NCBI GenBank assembly: GCA_018238155.1
Contig: JABCTZ010000032.1
Span: 96,001-160,000 of the forward strand
DNA: 64,000 bases
DNA from: Candidatus Heimdallarchaeota archaeon
GTDB taxonomy: Archaea > Asgardarchaeota > Heimdallarchaeia > JABLTI01
Reading direction: 5' to 3'
Below the pieces are notes generated by a model. That model searched no databases. It was not told the origin of the DNA and saw only the letters and a program-made list of their open reading frames with translations. The position numbers and the translations under genes were made by a program. Within the stretch, counting starts at the first letter, position 1. Each line of letters opens with the position of its first letter. Positions 38,096 to 41,078 of this stretch are shown here, piece after piece.

Positions 38096-39322
38096 ATGTC
38101 AGATAAAATTTCCGAACTTCTTACAAACTTGAAATCAAAAGATGCAACAATCAGAATTAAAGCAGCAAAAAATTTAGGTGGTTTAGGTGATCGTCGTGCT
38201 ACTCCTGAATTAATGAACACAATAAAAGAAAACCCCGATGTAGAAACTCGAGTTGCTGTTGCAGAAGCTTTAGGAAAAATTGGTGATAGGGTTGCAACAG
38301 AGCTTCTTATTGATACATTTAAGCGTGATCCTGATAAAAAAGTCAAAACTGCAATGCTAATGGCCTTGGGTGAACTTGGAGATGATAATGCATACGATCT
38401 TCTGTATAACGCCATTCTAACAGAAAAACTGTTAGTAATTCGTGAAGCAGCCATTATTGCTATTGGAAAATTGAATAATAAAGCTGTTGCTATTGAACTT
38501 CAGGAAATTGTTCTTGCAGAAAAAAGTACTAAATTAATCGTTGCAGCAATAAAATCACTCTATCTTTTAGGGGAAAGAAAAGCTGCACCTATGTTCAAAG
38601 AATTACTAGAAACATCTGATAATGCAACAATCAGAGCTGAAGTTGCAACAGGTTTAGGACGAATTGGAGGACGAGAAGCATTAACACCATTAATTGCTAT
38701 TCTTAAAAAGGAAAAGGATGAAAATGTTAGAAACTCTATTGTAATCTCACTAGGACGAATAGCCAATACTACGTCAGTAGATTCATTGATAGATGTCTTG
38801 AAAAATGATGAAAGTCCAATCATTCGAAAAAGTGCTGCTTGGTCTCTTAGACGAATTAAAGTTGGTCGAATTTCAAGTGTTCTTATGACTCAACTAGATA
38901 AAGAACCGGTTGAATTTGTTAAACAAGAAATTATTGCCTCTCTTGGTAAACACAAAGAAAGGAAAGCTATTAATGCTATTGTGGAAGTATTAGCAAATTC
39001 AAAAGATATTCAAGTTAGACGTGCAGCTGCAATAGCTCTTGGAGATATTAATGATAAAAAAGCGATTGAACCTTTACTAACAACCCTTGAAACAGATACT
39101 TCTGTTGAAGTAAGAAAATATGCTGCTTGGGCTCTTAGTAAACTGAAAAGTGTTAACTCTAAAGAAATATTAATTGAATATAAACAAAAAGAGAAGGATG
39201 ATTCGGTAAAAGAAATGATTCAAACTGCAATCAATACAATAGAAAATGCTATCAAACAAGCGGAAACCGAAGCTGCAAAAGCAGAAGAGCGTGCTAAAAA
39301 GGAAGAGTATTATTACTTTTAA
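38096..39322 (+). CDS. HEAT-repeat (PBS lyase-type) protein
   Basis: About 11 repeats of roughly 32 aa, (V/I)R..AA.ALG.IGD..A...L. Confidence 0.88.
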   Translation: MSDKISELLTNLKSKDATIRIKAAKNLGGLGDRRATPELMNTIKENPDVETRVAVAEALGKIGDRVATELLIDTFKRDPDKKVKTAMLMALGELGDDNAYDLLYNAILTEKLLVIREAAIIAIGKLNNKAVAIELQEIVLAEKSTKLIVAAIKSLYLLGERKAAPMFKELLETSDNATIRAEVATGLGRIGGREALTPLIAILKKEKDENVRNSIVISLGRIANTTSVDSLIDVLKNDESPIIRKSAAWSLRRIKVGRISSVLMTQLDKEPVEFVKQEIIASLGKHKERKAINAIVEVLANSKDIQVRRAAAIALGDINDKKAIEPLLTTLETDTSVEVRKYAAWALSKLKSVNSKEILIEYKQKEKDDSVKEMIQTAINTIENAIKQAETEAAKAEERAKKEEYYYF

Positions 39323-39343: not shown

Positions 39344-39796
39344 CTATAGTAATTTCTCTTGTTGAAAATCACCAATCAGTTCTCCAAACGATATACCATT
39401 ACTTAATGCATGTGTATATGAGATTTTGTAATTAGTTCCATTGCGAACACTCAAAAGTTGATCTGGAACATGTAAGAATGAAAATCCTTTGCGACGATTT
39501 TTGAATTTTACACCAACATAAGGTTCAAAGCCAATTCTCTTGCTGAATGCAAGTAAACCGACGATTTGCTCCTTGCTAATATAAAGAGTATTTTTCCGTA
39601 TTGTCTTAATTTCAAGAACAAAGAATTTCTTTCGTTTAACTGAACCCGCAATTAGATCTGGTCTTGGAAGAATTGTGCCACCTCCAGATGCAGGCGCACG
39701 AAGAACTGCAAAACCCGCTTCCCAGAACATATGAACTAAATCTCTTTCTGCTTTAACACCACTTGAAGACAAATACACACCCATCATAATGTACAA
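39344..39796 (-). CDS. hjc: Archaeal Holliday junction resolvase
   Basis: G..AERDL, GFAVLRAPASGG, PDLIA and LEIK (PD-(D/E)xK). Confidence 0.9.
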   Translation of the reverse strand: MYIMMGVYLSSSGVKAERDLVHMFWEAGFAVLRAPASGGGTILPRPDLIAGSVKRKKFFVLEIKTIRKNTLYISKEQIVGLLAFSKRIGFEPYVGVKFKNRRKGFSFLHVPDQLLSVRNGTNYKISYTHALSNGISFGELIGDFQQEKLL

Positions 39797-39942
39797 TAAA
39801 TCAAATAAAAATTCTAGGAAGAGATGGCTAATGATTTTGTTGAAATCGTACTAATAAGAGTTATATTTGAAATCTAAGAGATAAAATTTGTAATTACATC
39901 TTTCTAAAAGATCAAAGGTTTGATTTAAAAATAGAGAATTGA

Positions 39943-40068
39943 TCTGGAAAGCGACAGCCCAAAAATCGACCATTGTTTCAGGGAAAACAATGGGGAGCGC
40001 GTATGGACGGGCTTATCGCAATCCAGAATGCAGGTGAACAGGTCTCATAATGAGACCGGTTTTTTTTT
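39943..40068 (+). ncRNA. Candidate structured non-coding RNA (strand uncertain)
   Basis: Four nested stems, then a separate hairpin and a T9 run; about 50% GC by hand count in an AT-rich intergenic region; no recognisable family. Confidence 0.5.
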
Positions 40069-40112
40069 GAACAAGGTCTCTCTTGTTACAAGCATGATTT
40101 TGGATTGATTTT

Positions 40113-40847
40113 CTAATTCTCAGCCATTTTCATGACCAGAGATATTGCTGAAATGACATCTTTAGCGGGAATACCTTCTCCTCGTTTGTAAATCAAAAGT
40201 GTGCCTTTATTAGATATTTGAGCACTAATTTGACTTCTATTTGGGAGATCAATAAATCCTCTAAAGTAGCTAATAACTCCTTGTCTTCTATAAATGGTCC
40301 ATTCTGCACTATCAAGAATATCGCCATTCAATTGAATTTTATTAAGAGCTTGGTTCTCTAAATCGGATATCTGTACTGTTTTAAGTAAAGCCGCATCCTT
40401 GCATAAATTAACCATAGCTGTATCATTTAAATTTACACTATCGAATTCAACTCCAAGGAGCTCCATTAATGGCACTAATCCTTTCTTAGACACCCATGAA
40501 GTTCCTCGACATTCGAGATATTTTTGTTTAGTATGAATAATATATTCGCATTTTCCTTGTGAATATACTACTTCATTTGTAATTTGATCATCCTTCATTC
40601 TTTGCACTGTGATTGGTTGTCCAATTGTATAGTAGACACTTATCATATTGCTATCTGTATCTACATCTGAAAATCCCTCGTAGAATTTTCTGTTTTTAAA
40701 TTCAACTGGATGTTCTTTCAATTTTTTGACAATCGTTTGTGCACTACCTAAAGTTCCGCCATTAACATGATATAATCTTAAAGGTAAGACCATACCTCGT
40801 GGAATTATTAAACCATTTACTTGGAGAGCCATTTTTTCACCTTGCAT
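40113..40847 (-). CDS. Hypothetical alpha/beta protein; start is probably the second Met (MALQV) after AGGTGA
   Basis: 244-aa ORF with an upstream TTTATAAA box near 40911. Confidence 0.6.
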   Translation of the reverse strand: MQGEKMALQVNGLIIPRGMVLPLRLYHVNGGTLGSAQTIVKKLKEHPVEFKNRKFYEGFSDVDTDSNMISVYYTIGQPITVQRMKDDQITNEVVYSQGKCEYIIHTKQKYLECRGTSWVSKKGLVPLMELLGVEFDSVNLNDTAMVNLCKDAALLKTVQISDLENQALNKIQLNGDILDSAEWTIYRRQGVISYFRGFIDLPNRSQISAQISNKGTLLIYKRGEGIPAKDVISAISLVMKMAEN

Positions 40848-41078
40848 TAAAGTCCGAGGACTCCTAACTGACCTCGGTTTCTATTGGAATCCAACTTATG
40901 TGGTTCTCTCTTTATAAACTTTACTCACCTCTCCTTCCATTGGAGCCTTTTTTTTTCGTTGTCTAAATATAATAGAAGATGAAGAGAAGGAATGATTTTA
41001 CAAAAAATGTGAGTTAAAAAGCTAAAAGGACAACCTTAAATCAATGAATGTACCAAACATATTAGTGAGGAATTTATA

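Follow-up and report, generated by a model that had tools for sequence, protein, structure and literature searches.

An experimentally proven case of a 3'UTR acting on the ribosome-binding site of its own mRNA is that of icaR in Staphylococcus aureus, in which a UCCCCUG motif pairs with the Shine-Dalgarno (SD) sequence, blocks ribosome loading and triggers RNase III; the pairing was demonstrated by gel shift and compensatory mutants (PMC3868564). Among the archaea, cooperation of the 5'UTR and 3'UTR is reportedly needed for haloarchaeal translation (PMC2636863), and sRNA162 of Methanosarcina is an archaeal sRNA that acts on mRNAs (PMC3510493). A search of the literature yielded no account of structured RNAs or riboregulators from Asgard archaea. 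In bacteria, the 3'UTR-derived sRNAs CpxQ, SroC and DapZ depend on RNase E for processing and on Hfq as a chaperone.

The RNA described here lies next to the gene F0 in a 64-kb window (the whole stretch of DNA that was analysed) of the genome G000, which served as the reference for the nucleotide identities of the element. With icaR it shares its place in a (here putative) long 3'UTR of a single gene and a short pyrimidine-rich motif, predicted to be unpaired and complementary to the SD region of the same mRNA, although the motif reads UCCCCUG in icaR and UUCACCUGCA in the F0 element. icaR is bacterial and RNase III-dependent, whereas the F0 element is archaeal and has three covarying hairpins and two further invariant loops that icaR lacks. 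Blocked ribosome loading is the outcome for icaR and only a proposal for the F0 element. The two have no sequence or structural homology, so the likeness is one of possible mode of action and not of membership. The haloarchaeal UTRs and sRNA162 have in common with the proposed function of the element the archaeal control of translation by RNA-RNA contacts, but they belong to other lineages, are unrelated in sequence and are based on experiment, unlike the F0 element, which is restricted to one family and known from sequence alone. CpxQ, SroC and DapZ likewise combine a structured, conserved mRNA 3' end with a terminator shared with the gene and an exposed seed; however, their dependence on RNase E and Hfq is bacterial, and the F0 element is known as a DNA sequence, not as a separate RNA species.

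A conserved structured RNA with three covarying hairpins

The earlier note had drawn attention to a GC-rich region with nested stems. The stems TCTGGA/TCCAGA (39943-48/40022-27), GCGA/TCGC (39951-54/40016-19) and AGCCC/GGGCT (39956-60/40009-13), the cap stem CCATTGTTT/AAACAATGG (39970-78/39985-93) and the second hairpin GGTCTCA-TAA-TGAGACC (40041-57) lie exactly where it had placed them, the T9 run is present in G000 at 40060-68, and TGAACA(A)GGTCTC occurs twice, at 40035 and 40068. The GC content of 59/118 in 39943-40060 was also confirmed and compares with 33% across the whole window. The plus-strand fold (136 nt) has a z-score of -3.82, with 1 of 200 shuffles equally stable, and the minus-strand fold (156 nt) a z-score of -5.61, with none of 200. 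The element proved longer than first described: conservation passes T9, extends about 30 nt beyond it to approximately 40096, and adds a third hairpin. Its features are collected in Table 1.

Table 1. Features of the element and of the adjacent F0 gene (positions in the window)
Feature	Position	Strand	Description
F0 ribosome-binding region	40836..40848	-	AAUGCAAGGUGAA; SD AGGUGAA at 40842-40836
F0, 239-aa gene	40113..40832	-	stop codon 2-17 nt upstream of the RNA; predicted RdgC/TBP-like fold
Whole conserved RNA element	39942..40096	-	match to minus-strand covariance model R2 (152 positions, 39 bp)
Hairpin A	40067..40091	-	UUG-U-AACAAG [AGAGAC] CUUGUU-CAA; core CAAGAGAGACCUUGUU invariant
Variable spacer	40060..40068	-	A9 on minus (= plus T9)
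Hairpin B	40041..40057	-	GGUCUCA-UUA-UGAGACC
Single-stranded motif	40029..40041	-	CUGUUCACCUGCA; nearly invariant; between hairpins B and C
Hairpin C	39943..40027	-	long rod: three lower stem segments, asymmetric internal loop, 9-10 bp cap
Internal-loop 5' strand	39992..40004	-	AUACGCGCUCCCC; final CC paired; ACGCGCUCCCC invariant
Internal-loop 3' strand	39960..39969	-	U-rich tract (A/C)U4-7G
U5 run	39927..39931	-	12-16 nt after hairpin C; putative archaeal transcription stop

The match of the whole element to R2 scores 152 bits (E 6e-36). Homologues, approximately 155-190 nt in length, were found in 10 of the 11 relatives searched within the same GTDB family: 9 of the 10 other genomes of the genus carry one copy (BLAST and covariance model R1), as does the sister-genus genome G011. 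G008 (85% complete) is the sole family relative searched that lacks the element. Across 71 other genomes of the class R1 gave a single match, at chance level (E 0.008), and R2 gave none in the 149 other genomes sampled from the phylum, where the filters were strict and weak relatives could be missed. After pattern scans and a protein-guided look-up the collection comprised 16 distinct element sequences. The pattern-scan matches L056, L058, L065, L069 and L073 were discarded as chance; the three that were read (L065, L069, L073) lie inside coding sequence. Marine sediment and cold seeps are the source of the metagenome contigs and DNA runs that hold the element. No RNA data set is listed as holding the locus, and two metatranscriptome runs, whose sample or study also holds related DNA, contained no contig on the element; neither result is informative about expression.

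The element is more conserved than the neighbouring coding sequence: it shares 76-96% of its nucleotides with G000, compared with 66-82% in the adjacent, itself well-conserved CDS and 44-67% at the third codon positions of that CDS. The earlier note had proposed covariation among homologues as a check on the structure. In the model-fitted alignment A7 (16 distinct rows, 39 pairs; an alignment that leans towards the model) 16 of the 39 pairs change on both sides, compared with 5.6 +/- 1.7 in shuffles (0/500), and standard pairs make up 95.8% of the pair cells, in comparison to 32-51% with the partners slid. Compensations are also visible by eye in plain MAFFT alignments, in which AGCCC/GGGCT is replaced by GGTCCC/GGGACC or GATCCC/GGGATC, GCGAT/ATCGC by TGGGG/CCCCA, and CTGGA/TCCAG by TTGGA/TCCAA. 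The element is a real, conserved, structured RNA whose three hairpins A, B and C covary.

The outer three base pairs of hairpin A change together, GCUUC occurring with GAA in 10/10 sequences and GCUUG with CAA in 6/6. Hairpin B is kept despite insertions, with 8 bp in L070 and L090; its sequence is wholly replaced in G011 by GUGUUUCC/GGAAACAC (also given as GTGTTTCC/GGAAACAC), and in the L052 group it reads GGUCUUU-GAAA-AGAGACC on the minus strand, with a U.G pair and a GNRA loop. Changes on both sides affect 10 of the 16 lower-stem pairs and 6 of the 9 cap pairs of hairpin C. The 5' strand of its internal loop has an unpaired probability of 0.73-0.95, and the variants of the 3' strand (AUUUUUG, CUUUUUG, CUUUUUUUG, CAUUUUG) are all U-rich. 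A pseudoknot partner for ACGCGCUCCCC was sought, and no consistent complement was found in the element, the F0 mRNAs or the genome, in which GGGGAGCGCG occurs once, as the opposite strand of the element itself.

The pairing of GAGACC with either copy of GGTCTC, suggested in the earlier note as an alternative fold, is real in most homologues, and in L053, L060 and L057 it is the predicted minimum-energy fold. It is lost in G011, hence a switch is not a conserved requirement.

Strand and relation to the F0 gene

The base pairs and loops place the element very probably on the minus strand. In A7 there are 21 G.U cells that are possible on the minus strand only, reading C.A or A.C on the plus strand, against 1 reverse cell, and a hand-checked minus-strand intermediate runs from U-A (L052) through U.G (L063) to C-G (L064). 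On the minus strand hairpin C is capped by c(UUCG)g in L072 and G011, u(UUCG)g in L052, UCCG in L064, GCAA in L053 and L060, GAAA in L067 and GUAA in L090, all of them UNCG or GNRA tetraloops; on the plus strand the same caps read CGAA, CGGA, UUGC, UUUC and UUAC. In favour of the plus strand there is one clear U.G pair, in L057.

Of two possibilities raised in the earlier note, the plus-strand sRNA with the hairpin and T9 as its own terminator is not supported, as these wobbles and tetraloops point to the minus strand. T9 is confined to the closest relatives; elsewhere the spacer reads ATATTTC, ATTC or CTTC on the plus strand (GAAAUAU, GAAU, GAAG or AAGU on the minus strand), and therefore it is not a conserved terminator. 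The other, an element on the minus strand in the gap from the 244-aa gene to hjc, was right as to the strand, but the constant association is with the 3' end of the 244-aa gene and not with hjc, as seen in G011. The 244-aa ORF corresponds to F0, whose start is M6 of that frame according to the orthologue alignment.

In every genome with the element the RNA follows the F0 stop codon on the same strand within the short distance given in Table 1, and most lineages, among them those with a distance of only 2-9 nt (e.g. L052, L053), leave no room for a promoter between them. F0 and the RNA are co-distributed, both being present in 10 of the 11 family relatives and both missing from G008. The 71 other genomes of the class contain one distant F0 homologue (32% identity). 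The element is still present on a contig whose F0 is 53% identical, and no such element was found downstream of F0 homologues at 30-33% identity (L075, L077, L089). In the homologue with 43% identity F0 is followed by a 247-nt gap and then hjc. The Holliday-junction resolvase gene hjc lies downstream on the same strand in the 15 variants of the genus g1 and in the P0001 and P0002 lineages (53% and 43% F0); in G011 the element is intact and the next gene encodes an LRR protein instead. The adjacency to F0, the co-distribution with it and the replacement of hjc in G011 indicate that the element belongs to F0 and not to hjc.

A T4-T6 run is found on the minus strand within about 20 nt past hairpin C in every homologue, and this U-run is a putative transcription terminator. 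Since the RNA starts just past the F0 stop codon, comprises three hairpins and ends at a U-run, it would be transcribed as the 3'UTR of the F0 mRNA. On these sequence features the element probably forms the minus-strand structured 3' tail of the F0 transcript, which we infer to be either the 3'UTR itself or an sRNA cut from the F0 mRNA.

The F0 protein has no Pfam match at E <= 0.01, RdgC (PF04381) included, and is rare, with only 16 representative clusters among 1.8 billion. An AF2 model built with 11 orthologues (pLDDT 67.5) is closest in fold to RdgC (Foldseek E 2.5e-7; VIA Z 10.8 with an rmsd of 5.8 Å across 196 residues), followed by TBP (Z 8.6) and CENP-L/Iml3 (Z about 8). F0 is predicted to have a tandem TBP-like, RdgC-like fold, the likeness to RdgC being at fold level only, and because of this predicted fold it probably binds nucleic acid.

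Comparison with known RNA classes

No match was obtained in the whole window with the 4227 models of Rfam 15 at gathering thresholds, in agreement with the suggestion that the RNA is novel. At permissive thresholds there were three chance-level matches only (E 1.9-8.8), none of which spans the hairpins as a unit. ARAGORN found no tRNA or tmRNA genes in the window. The element is not a MITE, as its own genome (4.08 Mb, 46 contigs) holds one full copy, with other matches of 14-24 nt at E > 0.08, and each relative genome has one copy.

C/D box sRNAs carry C (RUGAUGA) and D (CUGA) boxes near their ends. Neither RUGAUGA nor CUGA is conserved in the element alignments, as the earlier note had anticipated, and a match to SNORD108 at E 7.5 is chance.

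Archaeal H/ACA guide sRNAs resemble the element in having a large internal loop (the "pocket") with a stem on either side. In these RNAs the ACA box lies immediately 3' of the lower stem, at about 14 nt from the pocket, and the upper stem contains an L7Ae-bound K-turn or K-loop. On neither strand does the element have an ACA at the required place, or any ACA or ANA box past the stem: the lower stem is followed by AUCAAUU or CCAAUU on the minus strand and by (AA)UGCAGG on the plus strand. Its upper stem is a regular helix of 7-10 bp without tandem G.A pairs, capped by UNCG or GNRA and without a K-turn or K-loop; a search for a K-turn on the minus strand found none. It differs further in its lower stem (15-17 bp against about 9 in H/ACA), in having one loop strand that is merely U-rich, and in matching no Rfam family.

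Archaeal SECIS elements accompany genes that have an in-frame UGA and lie in their 3'UTRs. The F0 frame is uninterrupted: it can be aligned over its full length in 11 orthologues without an internal stop, hence without an internal UGA, and ends with UAG or UAA; no SECIS model was matched. A small ORF or stop-codon read-through was rejected as well, since the spacing from the stop codon to the RNA varies by non-multiples of 3, the AUG of the G000 element is ACG in other homologues, and the in-frame extensions end after 9-15 codons.

With no match in Rfam, the RNA motif is new, and it is confined to one Heimdallarchaeial family and close metagenomic relatives. Its likely class is that of structured regulatory 3'UTRs or 3'UTR-derived RNAs with an anti-SD seed. 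Bacteria have known examples of this class, and there are hints of it in other archaea.

The UUCACCU core and competing readings of its role

The core UUCACCU of the single-stranded motif (complement of 40032-40038) is the same in each of the 16 variants, with a second copy in G011, and the flanks of CUGUUCACCUGCA vary only in L067 and L050 (last base U) and in G011. The predicted mean unpaired probability of CUGUUCACCUGCA is 0.74-0.90 in 12 of 14 homologues. The 16S rRNA of the same genome ends with GGAUCACCUCCU, and UCACCU is common to that tail and to CUGUUCACCUGCA, so that the core looks like an anti-SD sequence.

The ribosome-binding site of F0 is strong, and 11 of 12 orthologues keep it as AAGGUGAA or UAGGUGAA. 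For UUCACCU(GCA) the complement in F0 is (UGCA)AGGUGAA, with predicted duplex energies from -9 to -15.6 kcal/mol, and the F0 site often has extra upstream GYA complementarity to the motif. The duplex comprises 10 contiguous bp in L090 (-15.6 kcal/mol) and 4+6 bp in G000 (UGCA-A-GGUGAA against UUCACC-UGCA). The last A of AGGUGAA finds a partner in the 3'UTR motif (UUCACCU) but none in 16S (AUCACCU). When intramolecular targets are ranked, the F0 site comes first or within the top three in 8 of 12 mRNAs and falls outside the top three in the remaining 4. Genome-wide, it ranks in the top 1% for the 13-mer (145 of 14,486 candidate starts) without being unique, a ranking that does not separate cis from trans action. 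In G000, 144 further candidate starts pair with the motif as well or better, a match of 7-8 nt being easy to get. Because the motif core is invariant, compensation with the ribosome-binding site cannot be read from it, and there is no covariation between the two. Prediction of long-loop duplexes that join the 5'UTR to the element was too permissive to inform. Pairing of the motif with SD sequences, in cis or in trans, is suggested by this complementarity as a plausible, if tentative, function.

The reading we prefer unites a structured 3'UTR of F0 with anti-SD masking of translation; taken as one statement, its chances would be a little below even. Hairpins B and C would hold CUGUUCACCUGCA single-stranded between them, and the UUCACCU core would mimic the anti-SD tail of 16S (AUCACCU). 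The motif could then pair with SD-type sequences, the simplest target being the AAGGUGAA site of F0 itself, which would close the mRNA 5'-to-3'. Such pairing would reduce translation or alter the stability of the mRNA, as the icaR 3'UTR does in S. aureus. The 3'UTR of the F0 mRNA may later be trimmed to a stable 3'UTR-derived sRNA and, alternatively, the processed RNA might act in trans on other GGUGA-type sites. The invariant ACGCGCUCCCC strand and the loop of hairpin A would probably bind a protein or a second RNA as a tuner. The anti-SD mechanism as such leaves ACGCGCUCCCC and the AGAGAC loop of hairpin A unexplained.

Among the competing readings, the 3'UTR could be a platform bound by F0 itself, at hairpin C or the invariant loops, for autoregulation or as a stable ribonucleoprotein, with the anti-SD-like motif secondary. 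The strict linkage and co-distribution of gene and RNA point this way, as do the loops ACGCGCUCCCC and AGAGAC, which look like recognition sites and not spacers, the DNA-binding nature of the best structural matches (RdgC and TBP), and the occurrence of GGUCUC also in a 5'UTR hairpin of F0 in five lineages. On the other hand, RdgC and TBP bind double-stranded DNA and not RNA, the model is of moderate confidence only, GGUCUC is missing from the 5'UTR of G000, L068, L051 and L053, and the invariance of the UUCACCU core and its duplication in G011 are left unexplained, which makes this reading rather unlikely. Binding by F0 could coexist with the preferred explanation.

It is less likely again that the element is a terminator or stability module only, which ends F0 transcription, protects the mRNA 3' end and insulates hjc, and has no pairing target. 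Its position at the gene end, the U-run past hairpin C in all homologues and the stable tetraloops, fitting for a protective hairpin, would suit such a role. Oligo-T, however, suffices for archaeal termination, three separate conserved hairpins exceed the need by far, and such hairpins are not normally more conserved than coding sequence; nor would a terminator need (nearly) invariant unpaired segments such as the 11-nt loop strand and the 13-nt linker.

We consider improbable the further idea that the tail of F0 is cut to a stable RNA which joins the F0 protein in a lineage-specific Heimdallarchaeial ribonucleoprotein, with the 13-nt seed (perhaps also ACGCGCUCCCC) recognising nucleic-acid targets. 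The layout of such a module, a protein gene with its adjacent RNA, would be analogous to TnpB/omega-RNA, but in a recombination-gene neighbourhood near hjc.

There is little chance that the element is a minus-strand leader, attenuator or riboswitch for hjc, reached by read-through from F0. The hjc gene does follow on the same strand in the g1 variants and in P0001 and P0002, and the GAGACC/GGUCUC alternative would provide a switch in the three homologues in which it is the minimum-energy fold. That alternative is nevertheless lost in G011, where the element stays intact in front of an LRR gene, so that the association with hjc is not constant; moreover, the element abuts F0 and is separated from hjc by about 130-150 nt of poorly conserved AT-rich DNA with TATA-like boxes.

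An independent plus-strand sRNA, convergent with F0 and ending at the GGTCTCA hairpin and T9, would fit the folding of the plus strand (z -3.8), the hairpin and T9 of G000, an A-rich TATA-like stretch upstream (39924-39933) and two pairs, the U.G pair of L057 and an ambiguous one in L070. It is very improbable in view of the wobble cells (21 minus-only against 1 plus-only), caps that are UNCG or GNRA on the minus strand only, C.A mismatches at 5-6 independent places on the plus strand, the absence of T9 from most homologues and the conservation running well past it. A DNA-level element, with the GAACA(A)GGTCTC direct repeats and the palindromes as protein-binding or recombination sites near hjc, is scarcely credible even though the repeat is present twice and conserved within the genus and the neighbours (hjc and the RdgC-like gene) are DNA-related, since the compensatory changes preserve pairing and not sequence, a strand-asymmetric pattern of G.U pairs is a property of RNA, as are tetraloops, and in G011 the first GGTCTC is lost while the hairpin is kept.

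The covariation support is unusually clean for a motif outside Rfam, and the covariance model R2 together with the alignment A7 could seed an Rfam family. The RNA also flags the gene of an uncharacterised protein of predicted RdgC/TBP-like fold next to hjc as one that may be under special post-transcriptional control. Closed-loop regulation of mRNAs is the rule in eukaryotes. If the preferred reading, a structured F0 3'UTR with anti-SD masking, is true, it would extend translational control by contact between the 5'UTR and 3'UTR to the archaeal lineage closest to eukaryotes.

Direct repeat and 5′UTR of F0

The promoter and 5′UTR region of F0, the 239-aa gene, carries a direct repeat, TCCAATRGAA-N5-AGGTNAGTWA, on both sides of a TATA-like AAAGTTTATAAA box, and the repeat is kept in all F0 orthologues, including the one that is only 53% identical. 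Similar motifs were found at a few other sites in the genome (C11:6578, C9:2445, C7:85210 and C44:1593), and the repeat could be the operator of a small regulon. The AGGTAAGT core of the repeat resembles the eukaryotic 5′ splice-site consensus, probably by coincidence.

In five lineages (L052, L064, L060, L057 and L062) the F0 5′UTR contains a hairpin (AGAAAC...GUUUCU) carrying AAGGUCUC, which is complementary to GAGACCUU in hairpins A and B of the 3′UTR element. Judged from this complementarity, the two sequences could form a second 5′-3′ contact in the F0 mRNA. The 5′UTR hairpin with AAGGUCUC is absent from the F0 5′UTRs of the window's own genome, L053, L068 and the sister-genus genome G011.

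Features of the F0 locus and of the sister-genus copy (positions in the window unless a sequence is named)
Feature	Position	Strand	Remark
HEAT protein gene	38096-39322		F0 neighbourhood
hjc	39344-39796		F0 neighbourhood
U-rich internal-loop strand of hairpin C	39960-39969	-	GAUUUUUGG in the window's own genome, (A/C)U4-7G elsewhere
F0 promoter and 5′UTR	about 40865-40960	-	direct repeat around TATA-like box
Element copy in sister genus (G011)	L051:4227-4413	+	38-nt insertion

Variation and a candidate protein site in the probable 3′UTR element

The insertion in the sister-genus copy doubles the anti-SD-like motif, giving CUGUUCACCUAC and GAAUUCACCUGC, and a small hairpin, UGUCCA-GAU-UGGACA, lies between the two motif copies. 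The U-rich internal-loop strand of hairpin C looks like an Sm/Lsm-binding site, and on the strength of this resemblance its binding by an archaeal SmAP is conceivable.

The F0 coding sequence, protein and gene neighbourhood

In two DNA metagenome runs the summed contig depth reached 55-62 at window 40218-40271 in comparison to about 3-5 on the flanks, since a 49-nt contig of depth 98 aligns with the part of the F0 coding region at 40235-40268. This contig may represent a short sequence common to F0 and abundant other organisms.

F0, encoded on the minus strand at window 40113-40832, is a rare protein with 16 representative clusters among 1.8 billion; no match to a Pfam family was obtained. The fold predicted for it is RdgC-like or tandem TBP-like and is also similar to CENP-L/Iml3. 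The F0 gene shares a conserved block with a HEAT-repeat gene, hjc and a gene for a membrane protein. The position of a gene with a predicted RdgC-like fold beside that of the Holliday-junction resolvase hints at a role of F0 in recombination.
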